NCBI GenBank assembly: GCA_028286645.1
Contig: JAQBRF010000004.1
Location: 157,501 to 203,191 of the forward strand
Source of the DNA: Candidatus Nomurabacteria bacterium
GTDB taxonomy: Bacteria; Patescibacteriota; Minisyncoccia; Phycocordibacterales; UBA5272
Direction of reading: 5' to 3'
DNA: 45,691 bases
This document shows positions 23,236-31,932 of the stretch, in pieces. The notes below the pieces were generated by a model. That model saw only the letters and a program-made list of their open reading frames with translations. It made no database searches and was not told where the DNA came from. Numbering within the stretch: position 1 is the first letter of the stretch; each line of letters starts with the position of its first letter. A program made the position numbers and the translations under genes.

Positions 23236-23312
23236 AGTTATTAGTAATTAGTTACTAGGGAAGATTAATAACATAAGGAATTTCTGAGAACTGGAAGCTG
23301 CCAACTGAAAAC
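23236..23312. repeat. Two 7-nt period micro-arrays
   Basis: agttatt agtaatt agttact; ctgagaa ctggaag ctgccaa ctgaaaa. Confidence 0.65.
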
Positions 23313-24196
23313 TATTTTTTTACCATGTACATATCCTGTCCGAAGCCTCCTACGCCAACGAATTCTACGCAGTCATCATTATTCAATATCCATTCATAAG
23401 GGCGGCATCCTTGGCAACCGCCTTCTCGAGTCTTCGGATCGTATGGTCCATTCGGGCAAACAAATACTTTTTCTGGGCCCATTCTGCCGGCTTCCTTCCT
23501 TGCCTCTTTTACTTTATACGCTACATCAAACACATCTTTATGAGCTTTTTCTAAATCTAATAATGGAACTTCTACTAATTTGTCGCTTTCTAAATACCAA
23601 TAGCTAGCACGCGTCACTTTTCTTTTTTGAAGCGCATTACAAAGCAAAAGATAAATGGGCAATTGCAGCGACCCATCTTTCTCTTCATTCTTTCCAGTTT
23701 TGAAATCAATTATATGAAGGGAGTCCGTTTCGGGTAAGTATTCTATCCAGTCCACTAATCCATTTAAAATAATGTTGTGATCCTCGCTTATGTAATAGTT
23801 GCACGGCATTGTGTCGCGCTTTAACTTAATGCATTTTTTCACTAAGAACTTAGGATCTTTTATTACATTTTCGATCATTTTCTTTCCGCGTGCCTTAAAT
23901 TCATTCTCTTCCTCTAAAGAATTAAATCCTCCCATTTTCCCCGAAACCTTTTTCCAGGCTTCTTCATACTTTTTCAGCAAGTCATAACTCATGCGTGTAT
24001 CGGCTGGATAATCACCCAAGCCTTCTAAAACCTCATGCACAGCTACTCCTAAAGCCATGTGAGGATTTACTATAGACATCTTGTGTCCAGTCGCAGGATT
24101 TTTATACATGTTATGTAAATAATACAGTCGCGGGCATTTCAAAAAATCTCCCATGGAGGAGTGTGATACCCATACTGCACTATATTTATCCGCCAT
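23312..24196 (-). CDS. PD-(D/E)XK nuclease, RecB/AddB-like, with putative Fe-S cysteines (start re-assigned to MADKYS)
   Basis: SHS....FLKCPR, G.AVH..LE, GLVD, IIDFKTG, QLPIY, CP...CQGC; TATACT 6 nt before ATG. Confidence 0.88.
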   Translation of the reverse strand: MADKYSAVWVSHSSMGDFLKCPRLYYLHNMYKNPATGHKMSIVNPHMALGVAVHEVLEGLGDYPADTRMSYDLLKKYEEAWKKVSGKMGGFNSLEEENEFKARGKKMIENVIKDPKFLVKKCIKLKRDTMPCNYYISEDHNIILNGLVDWIEYLPETDSLHIIDFKTGKNEEKDGSLQLPIYLLLCNALQKRKVTRASYWYLESDKLVEVPLLDLEKAHKDVFDVAYKVKEARKEAGRMGPEKVFVCPNGPYDPKTREGGCQGCRPYEWILNNDDCVEFVGVGGFGQDMYMVKK

Positions 24197-24289
24197 AGGA
24201 ATAGTATAGTGCAGAATCTCCAATTAACAATTTCTGGTTTACAAAAAAATCTGCTTGACAATCTATTTTGTTAGATGTAGATTATATTT

Positions 24290-24527
24290 GTGATACTGCT
24301 TCGTGGTGGTCTTACGGGACCAGCTTCCGGCTAGGGGTGACGAGCCTCCACAGACACAGCCCCGAGCGATTAGCGGTACCTACTATGTGCTGTTATTTCC
24401 AGGACAGTATCACACTGAATAAATGAATTACTCTCCGCCTAGGCGAGTAACAAATGGACGGACTAATAATCCGTGCCGACCCTCAGGATGTTGCTTCAAG
24501 CTTCATATCGTCCTGAGGGGTTTTTTA
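24290..24527 (+). ncRNA. Structured ncRNA unit 1
   Basis: TTGACA-N17-TAGATT (24255-24283); closing stem gtgatactg/cagtatcac; terminator ccctcagga/tcctgaggg-T6; no ORF. Confidence 0.7.
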
Positions 24528-24569
24528 TTGTATTTGCAATATTTTTAGTGAGTGATATATTATTTATAA

Positions 24570-24669
24570 CCACCCGCACGCAGAAGTTGTCTTCCATCCT
24601 CTGAGACGATAGATGCGAGAATCTCCCCGATTCGCGGGTGGCCTCCTGACATTTCTGTCAGGGTTTTTT
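24570..24669 (+). ncRNA. Structured ncRNA unit 2
   Basis: TTGCAA-N16-TATATT; closing stem ccacccgc/gcgggtgg; terminator cctgaca/tgtcagg-T6. Confidence 0.65.
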
Positions 24670-24693
24670 ATTTTTATCCCAATTCCATCCTAT

Positions 24694-24849
24694 CTAATCC
24701 CCGGGTATAGAGTTAATTGTGTCCTCATGTATTACGTTTTCAGGCAGGCTTAAATCAATATTCAATCTTTCGGCTTCCTCTACAGTTAAGGTGTCTAAAT
24801 CGTTTATTATTCCTCTTCTTACCGCCTCTTCTTTTGATATCTTTTCCAT
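24694..24849 (-). CDS. Putative 51-aa acidic protein
   Basis: MEKISKEEAVRRGIINDLDTLTVEEAERLNIDLSLPENVIHEDTINSIPGD; TAAAGT 6 nt before ATG. Confidence 0.55.
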   Translation of the reverse strand: MEKISKEEAVRRGIINDLDTLTVEEAERLNIDLSLPENVIHEDTINSIPGD

Positions 24850-24970
24850 ATATTTACTTTAACTTACACTTACGCTTTCAACAATGGGAATTTTCACATT
24901 CTTTAAAAAAGCTATATTTAACAAGGCCTTCTTACCCCTTGACAAATCCTGCAGGTTTGCTATACTGTAT

Positions 24971-25320
24971 TTGTGAAGGGGTAGAGAAGTTTTTCTCCTC
25001 TCCACATCGCTGTTCGTTTCAAACCTTCGTGAAGTTCGGGCCTAATTAAGCCCTTGAAATAGTAAATGTTTCACCCTCGTGTGACATGCGAGCCTAGCGC
25101 TCGCCGACTCTGTGTAGGTAGTAGCAAGACCCCCTTGCCTGCCGATGGGCGCCCTTCGGTAGGTTTATCCTTCGAGAGTAGGTGCGGTTGCAAGTTGATT
25201 CTATTGCGAAGTTGGCCAATCCAGAAAGCAAGGCCGCAGTACCCGGGTAGCAGCAGACGGTTCATCGTCTCCTGCTCCCGGGGTTTGTTTTTTCCCGCTC
25301 TGCATTCGCAGGGTTTTTTA
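24971..25320 (+). ncRNA. Structured ncRNA unit 3, about 350 nt
   Basis: TTGACA-N16-TATACT (24939-24966); consecutive hairpins; two tandem terminator-like hairpins. Confidence 0.65.
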
Positions 25321-25360
25321 TTTGAAAATAAAAGTCTAAAATCTATTAGAAATTAGTGAA

Positions 25361-28300
25361 TTAGATATTTCCTTGTATTAAGTCTTCCTCAAATTCTTTT
25401 ATACCCACCAGCGACTTTTCATATTTGGATGTATCTGGAAAATCTAGCGCACATATCTTTTTATACACTGCCATTATTAATTGCTCCAATCTTTTCACTT
25501 CTTCTAAAATATTTTTATCTTCGAATGAAAGTGAGAGTTCTTGTATTTTATTACCTGTTGATTGCTCTACAAATTCCAAGCACCCCTTCTTCACCTCATG
25601 AGTATTGTGATCACGAGAATTTTCTACTAAAATTTTATAAAACATTAACTGGTATCTATAATGATGCAATTTTATTTTGTCATATACGGTAGTCTTGCCT
25701 TCATCCCAGTCATCATATCCCCGTCCAGTTTTTAAATCTATCACTGTCCATGAATCGTTATCTCCTTTTACTATTTTATCTATCTTTCCGTTTATATATG
25801 AGCCGTCTAATTGAACGCATTGCTTGGCGAAGTTTAATTCTACTATATCTTCTGCCTTAATTTCATCTTTTTTTATTTCAATATATTTTTCAAGCGCTCT
25901 TTCACCTCTCTTTCTTTGCTTCTCTTCTTCATAATCCGGGAGTCTGCCCTTTTTAAGTTCCTTTCTGAATGATTCAAATACTTTTTCTATATCCGGAAAG
26001 GCTCCATCTTTGCGTATGAGAATATGAGCATCTTCTATTGCTTTGTGAATTGCCGTTCCGTATACATTGCTGACTGATTTAGCCTGCGGGAAGCGAAGTA
26101 AGTTTTGCTCGAGAAATAACAATGGTCCTCCTTCCATAACATTTAAGAAATTATTTAAGTGTGTCGGCGGAAGCATATAGCCTTCTATTACTTTTTTGAG
26201 CAACGCTTTCTCATCTTTCGCAAAAGGAGGAATGTGATAAACCTGTAACCCTTCAGCAAGCAGCTCGCTTTGCTCTACTTCTGTGACGCCTTTATCAGTG
26301 TCTGGTAGATCCGGATGCGACAAAAATCTAAGAGGACTTTTATGATGAGTTATATAAAGAGTGTGCCTTGCTCTTGTAATGGCTACATAAAATAGCCGAA
26401 TAAAGTCATCTTCCTCGTCGCCTGTCTGTTTGAGTCCTAGAAGGTTTATCGGGAATGATAATTTATTTCCCTTTGGTCTTCCTGCCCAGATGTCATCGTT
26501 TACTGAAATTATAAATACATAATCAAATTCAAGCCCCTTCGCGCTATGAGAAGTAAGCAGTGAGACAGAATTTTCATTATGAGCAAATGGGGTTTCATTT
26601 ATAAGAGGAATATTATAATCCACATGCATGTCGACAAACTCCCCCACGTCACGAGCTAAAAGTAATGTCCCCTCTTTATAATTTCGAAGTGCCTGCATGA
26701 AGACTCGAAGAGATGAAAGGAAATGTATGTATGATGCTGGATTTTCTTTAAATACGCTTTTACCAAAGTAATATTCTTTATAAGGAGAAGTAAAGGGAGA
26801 TTCGAGGTTTAGAGCAATGAGTGTAGGTTCCTCATCTTCGTTTTCTGATTCCGGAGTCCGCGGAATGTCCTTGCTTCCTATGAGGGCGTCTAAGATAATT
26901 TCAAGCGGAATTGTTTGTGATAATGTTCCAAGCTCTATTAAGAATTGGGCGAGCAAATGCATTTTTTCATCAGTGCTCTTTTCCATTGCTTCAAGCCAGG
27001 AAATGTTTTCTCTTTTGGCATTTTCTGCAACCTTCCAAATAGAAATTCTGCCAAGACCCCAAAATGGGAATGATAAAATCTCTGGCAGATACTCATCCTT
27101 TTCCCACTGCTCTCCGCCCACTGTTGATAAAAATCTACACAGAGTAATTAATTCCTTTACATGCACCTCATCAAACACATTTTCTTTTCTGGTGTATGTA
27201 TATGGAACATTTAATTTATCCATATATGGCAAGATAGAAATAAGCTGTCTATGCTCGCGTGCAATAACTGCGATTTCTTTCGCAGGAACTCCATTTTGTA
27301 AAAGTTCTTGTATCTTTTTGCTTGTGTACGCGTACTCTTCTATGTCGGTTCCAAAGGCGCAGGTATGAATTTCTCCAACTGGGAGGTCTTTATTTTTCGC
27401 TTTTAAATCTTTCCTTACATCTTTATAAATAGTTTCCAATCTATTTACTCCTTGAGTTACAATTGCGCGCGCGAAGTCTAATATCTTCTGGGTGGATCTA
27501 TAGTTTTCTATAAGAACAATTCTTTCTACATCTTTATAAAGCTCGCTAAAGGAATGGATGTTTGAAATTTCTGCCCCCTGGAATCGATAGATCGCCTGGT
27601 CATCATCCCCGACCACGCACACATTCGGTCGTCCTTCATGAACTGGATTGCTCGATAATGCTTTTACGAGTTCTAGCTGAGCGTTATTCGTATCTTGGAA
27701 TTCGTCAACCATTATGTAGTGATAAAGCTCTTCAATCTCAGTGCGAAGTGTTTCATTCTTTGAAAGAGCGTCCACCACTTGTAAAATCATGTCTTCATAA
27801 TCGAAATATCCTTCTTTGTATAATGCCTTTTGATACATTTTATAAATATCTACTAAGGCATACAGCTTAGACAATGATAGAAAATCTTTAAACACCCTGT
27901 TTCCATCTTCATCCTTACCTGTATATTCTGTCTTCCATCCAGATAGCGGCGTATTTTTCTCTGTGGCTTCTGCTAATGTAAGAGCGTTTTCTATGCTCTT
28001 CGCATACATTGATCCGATATTTGTGCCGCTTTTCTCAAACTCCATTCGCATTACTTCAAAAGCGGAAATAGAATCTTTCCCGATGCGTTCTGGCAGGTGT
28101 TCGGAAAGTATTTTATTTAATTCTACAAGAGCTTTTTCATTTTCTTCTAATATTTCTTTAAATCTGTCTGGAGATAATCCGCCCTTTTTTATATCCTTAA
28201 TTCTTCCCTGCGCTTCTTTTAGATAGGCATATCCTCGTTCCGGATGATATCCCCCTAAAACATGCTTATGCTCTAATCTTTCAAATATGTTTTTTAAAAT

Positions 28301-29877: not shown

Positions 29878-29985
29878 CAGTTAAATATATCAGAATAAGG
29901 ATAAAAGTGTCTATTGACAAATAGTAGGAAATATAGTATACTAAAGTAGTAGCACCTAATCGCAGGTCAACAGAGGGAGATATAC

Positions 29986-30405
29986 ATGGATTTCGGACGC
30001 GTTCTTTTCATCAAAATGCTCTTCATCGTGGCGGCCCTTATGATGGGCTTCGGATACATCATGTGCACGATTGTGGTCGCCAGCGAAGCCCCCGCGTTGC
30101 TATACGCATCGGCGCAGTTTCTCGCAACCGGAATTACGGTGGTCGAGCTGACCGCCGCAGTCTTACTTCTGGGATGCGCGAGACACGTCACACTAGGGGG
30201 TGGAGTGGTGATGTTCATCGTCGCCGCACTCGGCGGGCTGATGTTCTTCCCCATCTGGCGCCAAGTTCTCGCTGCGGATGTTCCGGCGGATCACATTCCG
30301 ACGGTCGTCTACTTCGTGCTTCCATTCGTGCTCGTGGTAATGTGGTACGTCATCGCCGCCGCGCAACATGCGAGACGCGGAGATGGCGCCATCCTTAAGT
30401 CGTAG
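29986..30405 (+). CDS. GC-rich 4-TM ORFan cassette
   Basis: TTGACA-N17-TATACT (29914-29942), GAGGGAG, terminator ccgccg/cggcgg-T7. Confidence 0.75.
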   Translation: MDFGRVLFIKMLFIVAALMMGFGYIMCTIVVASEAPALLYASAQFLATGITVVELTAAVLLLGCARHVTLGGGVVMFIVAALGGLMFFPIWRQVLAADVPADHIPTVVYFVLPFVLVVMWYVIAAAQHARRGDGAILKS

Positions 30406-30481
30406 GAAGCGACACGCCATCGCCACAACCCGCCGCGTCCATCAAGGACCGGCGGTTTTTTTATTTTTTAATTTCTTAGTA

Positions 30482-30510
30482 TTGACAAGAACGTATTTGT
30501 ATAGTATAAT
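30482..30510 (+). promoter_or_regulatory. Perfect consensus sigma70 promoter
   Basis: TTGACA-N17-TATAAT. Confidence 0.9.
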
Positions 30511-30568
30511 GCCCTAGAACCCTGCTGTTTGATTTACTCACCTGATTCAATTCTAAAGGAATTCTGAC

Positions 30569-31021
30569 ATGGCCAACGCTATCCACTTTATCGACCTCTC
30601 TCCGGAGGGAGTTCGGAATTTCGTCATCTGCCTCGGACCTTACTTGCCGAACTCGATCGCGGGGTATTTATTCCCCGTTTTCATGCTCATCGGCTTCGTC
30701 GCGTTCGTCATCGCGATGTTCTCCATACTCGGCAAGAACAGCCGGCGGCCGAAGAATGACCAGGAAGCCAAGGAGATGGTGGAGGATGCTGGGCTGGCTT
30801 TCGTCATCGGATGGATTACATCTGTATTGACGGTGATTGCGATGATCTCATGGCATTCGCTCGCCGTGAGCCGTCCAGGTGATATGGCCGACTACAAGCT
30901 GTACGCCGCGGCCAGTATCTGGGAGGTTTTCTTTCTGGTGACCTTCATCGCATTTACATTCGCCATCAAGACGCGATCAGTGGCCACTATGTGCGTCGTG
31001 GAAAAACATGGACACGCGTAA
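30569..31021 (+). CDS. GC-rich 3-TM ORFan cassette
   Basis: Consensus promoter, AAAGGA, hydrophobic segments. Confidence 0.75.
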   Translation: MANAIHFIDLSPEGVRNFVICLGPYLPNSIAGYLFPVFMLIGFVAFVIAMFSILGKNSRRPKNDQEAKEMVEDAGLAFVIGWITSVLTVIAMISWHSLAVSRPGDMADYKLYAAASIWEVFFLVTFIAFTFAIKTRSVATMCVVEKHGHA

Positions 31022-31205
31022 CAAGCGGCGCCTTGCGGCGGTGATGCTCGTCGCGATTATCGGATCGCTCATCGAAGTCGCGGTGATAGTCGTGGAAGGC
31101 GCCAAAGCCGAAGAACCGGCAAATGTCACGGCACCCGCGCCCACCTGGTGGCATCTGCCGCTTTTGAACGGCGACGGGAACGTCATCCATGTCTACAACC
31201 TCTGA
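31008..31205 (+). CDS. Small membrane or secreted ORFan, second gene of cassette
   Basis: Basic N-terminus plus hydrophobic helix; overlaps previous stop; terminator aaaagccacac/gtgtggctttt. Confidence 0.6.
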   Translation: MDTRNKRRLAAVMLVAIIGSLIEVAVIVVEGAKAEEPANVTAPAPTWWHLPLLNGDGNVIHVYNL

Positions 31206-31268
31206 TCGGAGCTCGGAAACTCCGAAAAAGCCACACCAAGTGTGGCTTTTATTATTTGGTAAACTAAA

Positions 31269-31334
31269 TTATTTCGTTACAACCTTCTTTGGTTTCTTTT
31301 TTTCCCTTCTTTCACTGTGATTTCCTTTTGCCAT
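31269..31334 (-). CDS. Putative 21-aa basic micropeptide
   Basis: MAKGNHSERREKKKPKKVVTK; TAAACT 8 nt before ATG; converges on a symmetric terminator. Confidence 0.5.
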   Translation of the reverse strand: MAKGNHSERREKKKPKKVVTK

Positions 31335-31342
31335 ATTTAAAT

Positions 31343-31373
31343 AGTTTACAGTTTACAGTTTCAAGTTTCCAGT
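31343..31373. repeat. 7-nt period micro-array (AGTTT core)
   Basis: agtttac agtttac agtttca agtttcc agt. Confidence 0.75.
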
Positions 31374-31430
31374 AAATTAAGTGGACAAGAAATTTTGTTG
31401 TTTTTATTAAAATTGTGTTAATCTGTAGTT

Positions 31431-31543
31431 GGTTCCGGCGCTCTACCCTAGGGCGTTCCTCGGGACCGGATGGAGCTCTTCGGAGCAACATCACACGGTT
31501 TGGCCCGCGAAGGTCCTTGGAAAGGATCCTCGCGGGCCCTTTT
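31431..31543 (+). ncRNA. Compact GC-rich structured RNA
   Basis: TG-n-TAATCT upstream; tccgg/ccgga enclosing cgctcta/tagggcg; gctc-TTCG-gagc; terminal ggcccgcga/tcgcgggcc-T. Confidence 0.6.
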
Positions 31544-31551
31544 CATTTCAG

Positions 31552-31908
31552 CTACTTATTGCAAAGCTTTGATATTCTTCTTCCAGAGTTAACGGCAGAT
31601 TCTTCAGAATTAAAGTATATTTTATTTTTCGCTGATATATTTCCTGACCCGCTGCACCATGAAAATGTGTACGTCTTTCCCTTCTTGCTTGCAAATGGGC
31701 GCGGGTCGGAGTTGGGAAATGAAGATATAGCCTCTGCTGTGGAGGTGGCCACTATATATGAAACTGGAATTATTGAGGATGATCTTTTATATTGCAAATA
31801 AAAGCAAAATCCAATAAGAAGAATAAATGTTATTCCAATACTTAAGCAATCATAAAAGCCGAGGCGGCTATTGATTTTTTTAAAGAATTCTTGTATACTA
31901 AAGCCCAT
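31552..31908 (-). CDS. Membrane protein with Ada-metal-binding-like C-terminal motif
   Basis: TM; ASKKGKTY...WC....I...NKIYF.SEE.A...G. Confidence 0.72.
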   Translation of the reverse strand: MGFSIQEFFKKINSRLGFYDCLSIGITFILLIGFCFYLQYKRSSSIIPVSYIVATSTAEAISSFPNSDPRPFASKKGKTYTFSWCSGSGNISAKNKIYFNSEESAVNSGRRISKLCNK

Positions 31909-31932
31909 AAATCAATTATTTAAGTATAAGCT

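Follow-up and report, generated by a model that had tools for sequence, protein, structure and literature searches.

A candidate ORF-less, moron-like transcription cassette between two core genes of a Candidatus Nomurabacteria bacterium

Species-specific trans-acting sRNAs of bacteria are encoded in intergenic regions, possess their own promoter, end at Rho-independent terminators and have a narrow phylogenetic range. What defines the large structured RNAs known so far is that they are conserved and show covariation. In T4-type phages, promoter-early stem-loop (PeSL) cassettes have been described in the so-called hyperplastic regions (Arbiol et al. 2010, PMC2839356). Phage morons, as portrayed by Cumby and co-workers (Cumby et al. 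2012, PMC3594210), are independent promoter-gene-terminator units that are located between conserved genes. Recently, Faure et al. (2025, PMC12045711) reported that the TIGR arrays of TIGR-Tas, including a stem-loop type of array, occur in CPR bacteria.

Here, we compare these systems with a locus in the genome of a Candidatus Nomurabacteria bacterium (CPR/Patescibacteria), which comprises 0.86 Mb in five contigs, has a GC content of 39% and is 98% complete. The stretch of DNA that was analysed as a whole, in the following called the window, is 45,691 nt long and corresponds to C5:157501-203191, in which C5 is the contig label; positions without this label refer to the window. A gap of 1137 nt separates two core genes on the minus strand, which encode a PD-(D/E)XK nuclease and an AddA-like helicase (Table 1). 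The nuclease was found in 51 of the 52 other genomes of the genus, and its closest relative anywhere is 76% identical, even when a metagenome search for closer strains is included. The slot between both genes contains three ORF-less units on the plus strand and, on the minus strand, the orphan ORF51, which is coding-like (codon score 0.421, exceeded by 0.4% of shadow ORFs) and whose only match among 5.8 billion proteins is the ORF itself. The present work deals with the third of these units, unit 3, which is convergent with the helicase gene. A Logan contig of 29,442 nt spans positions 23800-25800 with 0 differences; this contig may share reads with the window. A second strain is visible at 4.8x at positions 24054-24249.

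Our preferred reading, to which we assign a probability of about 0.6, is that unit 3 is a species-specific, ORF-less, moron/PeSL-like cassette giving a predicted non-coding RNA of ~320 nt. Judged by its signals, unit 3 appears to be a non-coding unit of the plus strand that is transcribed on its own. This strand is favoured because T-runs are located 3' of hairpins only there and because its fold is the more stable one by 10 kcal/mol (MFE of -127.8 kcal/mol for the plus strand vs -117.8 kcal/mol for the minus strand).

Table 1. Coordinates (window positions) of unit 3, its parts and its surroundings
Feature	Position	Strand	Remarks
PD-(D/E)XK nuclease, Cas4-like, AddB-like	23312-24223	-	Flanking core gene
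Unit 1, ORF-less promoter-to-terminator unit	24255-24530	+	Promoter/terminator scan; fold z -3.8
Unit 2, ORF-less promoter-to-terminator unit	24533-24675	+	Promoter/terminator scan; fold z -6.4
51-codon ORF (ORF51)	24694-24849	-	Divergent from unit 3; coding-like codon usage, orphan
Inverted repeat around the promoter	24933-24983		Arms 24933-24947 and 24969-24983, 15 nt, 93% complementary
Putative sigma-70-type promoter	24939-24966	+	TTGACA (24939-24944), 16-nt spacer, TG-n-TATACT ending at 24966
5'-proximal hairpin	24973-25005	+	13 pairs; 5' arm purine-rich, 3' arm C/U-rich
Body	25006-25241	+	~51% GC; fold not distinguishable from shuffles
Small hairpins in the body	~25018-25060, 25089-25105, 25125-25139, 25140-25164	+	Present as listed in the preliminary description
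96-codon ORF (ORF96)	25066-25356	+	ATG start; judged spurious
First intrinsic terminator	25242-25293	+	16-bp hairpin 25242-25282, T-run 25284-25293
Second intrinsic terminator	25297-25324	+	7-pair stem (25297-25314) including G-U pairs, then T-run
UvrD-type helicase with C-terminal PD-(D/E)XK domain, AddA-like, 1113 aa	25361-28702	-	Flanking core gene

A preliminary description of the locus, made from the sequence alone, had listed a near-consensus promoter, a series of hairpins and a second terminator, and all of these features are present where it had placed them. The putative promoter agrees with the consensus at 11 of 12 positions and has an extended -10 region, although a match to the sigma-70 consensus alone is not proof of activity in this organism. 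We infer that transcription starts near 24973, ~7 nt past the -10 hexamer. Two intrinsic terminators follow 310-350 nt downstream. The first of them is far more stable than shuffled sequences (z -5.6), and the same applies to the terminator block 25243-25322 (z -5.7); in both cases, 0 of 200 shuffles were equally stable. The tail of the second terminator is 100% identical over 15 nt to that of the terminator of unit 2 (25309-25323 and 24659-24673, respectively). When positions 24000-25600 were scanned as a whole, eight promoter-like and six terminator-like sites were found vs 3.7 and 1.8 expected. The promoter is bracketed by an inverted repeat, whose left arm includes the -35 hexamer, and from this arrangement we infer that the repeat could be the binding site of a regulator. 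Moreover, the promoter spacer contains a near-palindrome (24945-24958), which may be an operator. Unit 3 occurs in a single sequencing run, which is of DNA and may be the source of the sequence; the two RNA runs of the same study lack words of unit 3 and RNA contigs do not cover it, which has no bearing on expression.

Unit 3 belongs to a larger set of similar arrangements in this genome. A genome-wide scan for promoters with at least 10 of 12 consensus positions that are followed by a terminator within 50-450 nt, with less than 25% typical coding sequence, yielded 26 promoter-to-terminator units. Twenty-five of these were examined. Thirteen of them have a sense ORF that is 65-123 aa long and ends ahead of the terminator, and most of these ORFs are preceded by a Shine-Dalgarno motif. 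About 10 of the 25 units, including units 1+2 (taken as one) and unit 3, have no such ORF. The 28-nt promoter of unit 3 is present two more times in the genome, at C5:28201-28228 (0 mismatches) and at C5:322517-322544 (1 mismatch). Thus, unit 3 combines a strong predicted sigma-70-type promoter with a stem-loop terminator, and its promoter motif occurs three times in one genome. Both additional copies head an ORF-less, GC-rich stretch of ~105-120 nt with a strong terminator. An alignment of the three units extends from around -40 to around +20; it takes in an A/T-rich stretch upstream of the promoter and a GARGTTT motif near +12 to +20. The reversed 28-nt pattern, which served as a control, had 0 matches in 53 genomes. 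The RNAs that would be made from the two sister loci on C5 are missing from all 52 other genus genomes. Three genomes of the genus possess one copy of the promoter each, with at most 3 mismatches and with unrelated DNA downstream. A relaxed pattern of 22 bases identified eight loci among 185,579 species genomes, and five of the respective records are titled as Patescibacteria lineages. The promoters at these loci head small genes as well as ORF-less stretches.

The slot itself is variable. Across 29 relatives, the length of the gap between the helicase and nuclease genes ranges from 0 to >1400 nt. In 12 of the relatives' loci, a conserved minus-strand gene for a protein of 102-104 aa follows directly after the helicase gene; this gene is missing from the genome studied here. 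Furthermore, the gaps of the relatives contain four mutually unrelated families of plus-strand proteins of 135-185 aa. No frame of the gap of this genome is related to the four families or to the 102-104-aa protein, as judged by tblastn and profile searches. The gaps contain 20 promoter-like sites on the plus strand vs four on the minus strand, and in 10 of 28 gaps a promoter-like site is located 14-117 nt from the start of the nuclease gene. Thus, the slot is a variable region between conserved genes, the contents of which differ among relatives. Direct repeats that might mark an insertion do not flank the 1.1-kb block. Because of this context and of the shared promoter, unit 3 can be placed among promoter-to-terminator cassettes with a fast turnover.

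How far does unit 3 agree with the described cassettes? Like the PeSL cassettes, as they are characterised for T4-type phages, it pairs a strong sigma-70-like promoter with a stem-loop terminator in an arrangement that recurs in one genome, and it is located in a variable region between conserved genes, whose contents are swapped among relatives (PMC2839356). However, unit 3 resides in the chromosome of a CPR bacterium and not in a phage, and its signals enclose ~320 nt of ORF-less DNA, whereas the signals of PeSL cassettes flank ORFan genes (PMC2839356). Moreover, recurrence is restricted to the promoter module, of which this genome has three copies, while the terminators share a tail of at most 15 nt. 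Unit 3 also resembles the morons, according to their published outline, because it is an autonomous unit that differs in base composition from its surroundings, lies between conserved genes and is missing from relatives (PMC3594210). In contrast to unit 3, morons contain a protein gene (PMC3594210), and no prophage context was found around unit 3. By analogy, unit 3 would be a cassette that works like a PeSL cassette or a moron and is not a member of either class in the strict sense, since it has neither a credible ORF nor a match to a phage or prophage.

The description as species-specific relies on a series of homologue searches. At E<=0.001, the predicted transcript of 323 nt was found in 0 of the 52 genomes of the genus, and the best that lay beyond this limit was a single match of 23 nt (E 0.003); the same search detected the 333-nt RNase P RNA in 48 of the 52 genomes. 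BLAST searches of 36 genomes of the genus and 24 genomes of the order did not reveal a homologue of unit 3 either. When 1101 nt of the gap were compared to 400 order genomes, only matches of 22-52 nt were obtained, in 34 genomes, and these are AT-rich pieces of promoters and terminators. No homologues of units 1 and 2 were detected in these 400 genomes, and none of the three units had a counterpart in the 29 syntenic loci and in 80 metagenome loci (404 kb; blastn with a word size of 7, and nhmmer). Likewise, there was no match to unit 3 among 50,697 phage and 72,556 plasmid records, and pattern and protein scans of IMG/VR did not yield a phage match. Without a homologue in any of the collections searched, no alignment can be built that would reveal covariation, conservation or selection on the RNA.

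The alternative that survives best, although we regard it as unlikely, is that unit 3 is a decayed mini-gene, that is, a former GC-rich small-protein cassette whose frame has been destroyed, leaving a promoter and terminators that would give a functionless RNA. With its 384 nt, its GC content and its layout of promoter and terminators, unit 3 matches the small-protein cassettes, and the slot of the relatives carries small-protein genes on the plus strand. However, no remnant of such a gene can be recognised. The first codon model had been trained on AT-rich genes and misses GC-rich ones, and it was therefore retrained on 81 GC-rich ORFs. With the GC-rich model, the best 30-codon window of any plus-strand frame in unit 3 scores 0.04, compared to 0.21-0.42 for six small-protein cassettes and to -0.04 to 0.18 for the plus-strand frames of RNase P RNA and tmRNA. 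Near the 5' end, a Shine-Dalgarno site followed by a start codon is missing as well, and the profiles of the four protein families of the relatives gave a best E of 0.44 in six frames (search space ~1.1 kb). The absence of a protein homologue of ORF96, which is described below, likewise speaks against a decayed gene. Finally, both sister units that share the promoter lack an ORF, too, and are much shorter, and a non-coding design fits this observation better than three independent decays.

The preliminary description had noted about 350 nt of nearly continuous hairpins in unit 3 and had interpreted them as a large structured RNA that is uncharacterised so far. This interpretation, spelled out as an RNA whose function would depend on a defined multi-helix fold and which would represent a new class like OLE, ROOL or GOLLD, appears quite unlikely to us, even though some observations agree with it. 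Unit 3 is non-coding, possesses its own predicted promoter and terminators, is long for a bacterial sRNA and has a GC content of 51-52% vs 39% for the genome. Moreover, the fold of the whole unit is more stable than that of shuffled sequences, with z values of -3.7 and -3.4 in two shuffle tests. However, the dissection by parts revealed that the whole-unit z is due to the terminator hairpins. The body without the terminators reached z values of only -0.87 (60 shuffles) and -1.50 (14 of 200 shuffles equally stable) for positions 24973-25242, -0.52 (60 of 200) for 25011-25242 and -0.17 (81 of 200) for 25106-25242. By comparison, the RNase P RNA and the tmRNA of the same genome, which served as controls, reached z values of -4.2 and -6.7, respectively. 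Two local signals are stronger. The 5'-proximal hairpin (MFE -13.7) has a z value of -2.65, with 4 of 200 shuffles equally stable, and the body reaches a z value of -2.3, with 3 of 150 shuffles equally stable, if pairs are limited to a span of 45 nt. Taken as a whole, the body folds about as well as its base composition predicts. Thus, the complementary strings noted in the preliminary description exist as written, but they do not make the body more stable than expected from its composition, and with a z value of -0.5 to -1.5 the body lacks the stability beyond composition by which a structured non-coding RNA would be recognised. The GC content is a weak discriminator, too, since 6.3% of the 200-nt windows of this genome have at least 50% GC and many of these windows are GC-rich genes.

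Comparison with known families and with relatives leads to the same result. A search of the whole window with the 4227 models of Rfam 15 gave 0 matches at the gathering thresholds. At E<=10, only chance-level matches to eukaryotic snoRNA, miRNA and sRNA models were obtained for positions 24100-25500, with 13-22 bits vs cut-offs of 49-115, none of which is credible. Rfam models also detected nothing in the gap loci of 20 relatives and in five loci with the shared promoter, and ARAGORN found nothing in the window. Unit 3 has no match to a known family, including RNase P, tmRNA, SRP, 6S, OLE, ROOL, GOLLD and HEARO. With OLE, ROOL, GOLLD, HEARO and raiA, unit 3 shares a length of a few hundred nucleotides, the lack of coding signals and a GC content above that of the genome; unlike these RNAs, it has no Rfam match, no conservation, no covariation and a body that folds at chance level. 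While RNase P RNA is conserved in the genus, unit 3 is not. The proposal of a large structured RNA is thus not upheld: the body (230-270 nt) folds as shuffled sequences do, homologues are missing from the collections searched and the context is that of a cassette. A TIGR array was considered as well and rejected. Such arrays, as they have been outlined, consist of successive hairpins in non-coding CPR transcripts and escape conventional repeat finders (PMC12045711), and unit 3 would resemble them in this respect. However, unit 3 has no tandem period, box C (RTGATGA) is missing from 24224-25360, and the genome has 0 matches to the Nop domain (PF01798) of the Tas protein.

It is very unlikely that unit 3 encodes a small orphan protein, either by ORF96, by a 22-codon ORF (25182-25250) or by a 64-codon ORF on the minus strand (25071-25265). 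The frame of ORF96 is open over 96 codons from an ATG. However, its codon log-odds of -0.347 is below those of all 506 pieces of true genes and of 96.5% of 260 shadow ORFs, and its GC contents at the three codon positions (.46/.55/.51) show the reverse of the pattern of GC-rich real genes of this genome (~.58/.41/.60). ORF96 also extends through both terminators and lacks a Shine-Dalgarno site, as do both of the only two sense ORFs of at least 12 aa in unit 3. The suspicion voiced earlier that the ORFs are spurious was therefore well founded. Furthermore, coding-type conservation of ORF96, which would have argued against an RNA, was not observed: the ORF has no homologue among 5.8 billion proteins and belongs to no Pfam family. 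The minus-strand ORF shows the order GC1>GC2<GC3 (.64/.48/.56) and is weakly coding-like, but its best window of 0.17 is no stronger than those of spurious frames of the tmRNA, and it has no promoter-like site.

The SRP RNA models, both small and large, and the 6S RNA model (RF00169, RF01854 and RF00013) find nothing in this 98%-complete genome, and it could be asked whether unit 3 is a housekeeping RNA (SRP, 6S, RNase P RNA or tmRNA) too divergent to be recognised by Rfam. This is highly improbable, since RNase P RNA and tmRNA are located elsewhere (C5:467772-468104 with 126.5 bits and C3:7964-8358 with 94.7 bits, respectively), by which unit 3 is rejected as the source of either, since cmscan gave no SRP or 6S match at E<=10, and since genus-wide conservation would be expected of such an RNA, whereas unit 3 occurs in none of the 52 genomes. 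A search of 30 other genomes of the genus did not detect the small SRP RNA in any of them either, so the failure to find it is a property of the genus, which unit 3 cannot answer because it is not shared across the genus. A motif of SRP domain IV was not seen in unit 3 and has no convincing site genome-wide.

In the cassette reading, RNA polymerase would start near 24973 and stop at 25293 or 25324, which would give an RNA of ~320-350 nt. The 5' stem-loop and the 3' terminator hairpins would stabilise this RNA. Unit 3 has much in common with trans-acting sRNAs, as it is intergenic and non-coding, has its own predicted promoter and a terminator hairpin with a U-tail and is narrow in range; it differs from them in that its ~320 nt are at the long end. 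A BLAST-type search for seed complementarity gave nothing above the level of chance: outside unit 3, exact identity or complementarity in the genome extends over at most 14 nt (E 0.84), so that no target is indicated. A function through structure is unsupported because the fold of the body is no better than chance. If the RNA acts at all, it would most likely do so as a species-specific trans-acting regulatory RNA or as a decoy and not by means of a conserved tertiary fold. About half of our belief in the cassette reading also allows for the RNA being neutral and made simply because the cassette was acquired recently.

The palindrome in the promoter spacer, which is common to the three units with the shared promoter, suggests that one regulator may control all three. 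Going further, unit 3 could form a small regulon together with C5:28076-28228 and C5:322406-322544. Its members would share one operator-bearing promoter and 5' stem-loops with GARGUUU at ~+12 to +20, and ultra-small symbiotic bacteria would gain and lose entire non-coding RNA genes in the form of such cassettes, as phages do with morons, perhaps with a role in host interaction or phage defence. We put this proposal forward as a speculation with rather little chance of being correct in full. Among the members of such a regulon, unit 3 would be the largest.

By itself, a candidate sRNA without relatives in an uncultured bacterium, such as unit 3, changes little. For screens that are based on sequence only, it can serve as a caution, because hairpins are visible in GC-rich DNA of an AT-rich genome and the good z value of the whole unit has its source entirely in the terminators. 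Among the papers listed by a narrow literature search, none deals with ORF-less cassettes in CPR bacteria, which is not a claim that they are absent from print. The value of unit 3 lies in the additional case that it provides of the many self-contained cassettes of this 0.86-Mb genome, some of them gene-less, which are located between core genes and are not shared within the genus. If the ORF-less cassettes are transcribed and functional, CPR bacteria would replace their RNA regulators at the same pace as their accessory genes, and the 28-nt promoter that the three units share could then be used to find their common regulator.

The 28-nt promoter of unit 3, the ORF-less cassette between the genes of the Cas4-like nuclease and the AddA-like helicase, also heads two short ORF-less RNAs on the same contig (see the table). 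In both, a 5' stem-loop is combined with a strong terminator. No Rfam family matches them, and a search of 52 genomes of the genus detected neither RNA. The two ORF-less units beside unit 3 show better fold statistics than it does and share strings of 15-16 nt with it, unit 1 in its start region and unit 2 in its terminator tail. Both of these units are orphans; searches in the relatives, in genomes of the order and in metagenome loci gave no homologue.

Coordinates of the features. C5 is a contig of G000, the Candidatus Nomurabacteria genome; L013, L018, L037 and L041 are helicase-nuclease loci of relatives; fold z gives stability against shuffled sequence.
Feature	Location	Strand	Remark
Unit 1, ORF-less promoter-to-terminator unit	window 24255-24530	+	fold z -3.8
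Unit 2, ORF-less promoter-to-terminator unit	window 24533-24675	+	fold z -6.4
51-codon ORF	window 24694-24849	-	codon score 0.421
Partial heptamer-phased motif	window 25332-25345		after terminators of unit 3
GC-rich stretch	window 29878-31932 (G000:C5:187378-189432)		2 kb, 48% GC
Variant contig, 211 nt	window 24054-24249		4.8x depth, 15 differences from the window
ORF-less RNA with unit 3 promoter	G000:C5:28076-28228	-	~105-120 nt
ORF-less RNA with unit 3 promoter	G000:C5:322406-322544	-	~105-120 nt
Gene of 102-104 aa (example)	L013:2418-2729	-	directly after helicase gene
Gap protein (example)	L037:404-877	-	strand opposite core genes
Gap protein (example)	L041:3011-3478	+	strand opposite core genes
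Gap protein (example)	L018:901-1455	-	strand opposite core genes

The gap that houses these units also contains a 51-codon ORF with a strongly gene-like codon usage, for which no relative was found in 5.8 billion proteins, in viral contigs or in the loci of the relatives. In the relatives, the helicase-nuclease gaps hold four protein families of 135-185 aa, which are unrelated to one another and have no match in Pfam or PADLOC. Moreover, a conserved gene directly follows that of the AddA-like helicase in 12 of the 29 relatives; it shows a weak, below-cut-off match to DUF2103 (E 9e-4) and is lacking in G000. The DNA run also yielded a variant contig, which stops just before the promoter of unit 1 and represents a second, rarer strain. 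Elsewhere in the window, a GC-rich stretch, in which a gene caller based on codon usage found no typical gene (longest open frame, 154 aa), probably consists of further GC-rich mini-gene cassettes.

The 98% complete genome gave no match to the Rfam models of the small SRP RNA (RF00169), the large SRP RNA (RF01854) and the 6S RNA (RF00013). For RF00169, this was the case in all 31 genomes of the genus (G000 and 30 others); control genomes did match. The SRP RNA of the genus may be very divergent or may have been lost by the first-look filter of the search.

G000 also carries 43 occurrences of a heptamer-phased motif with the core TCTAAAATCTA and the frequent form TCTAAAATCTAATGTCTAAAATCTA, a partial copy of which lies downstream of unit 3. 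Most of the 43 copies are located directly upstream of start codons, and the motif may serve the AT-rich core genes as their promoter or leader signal.
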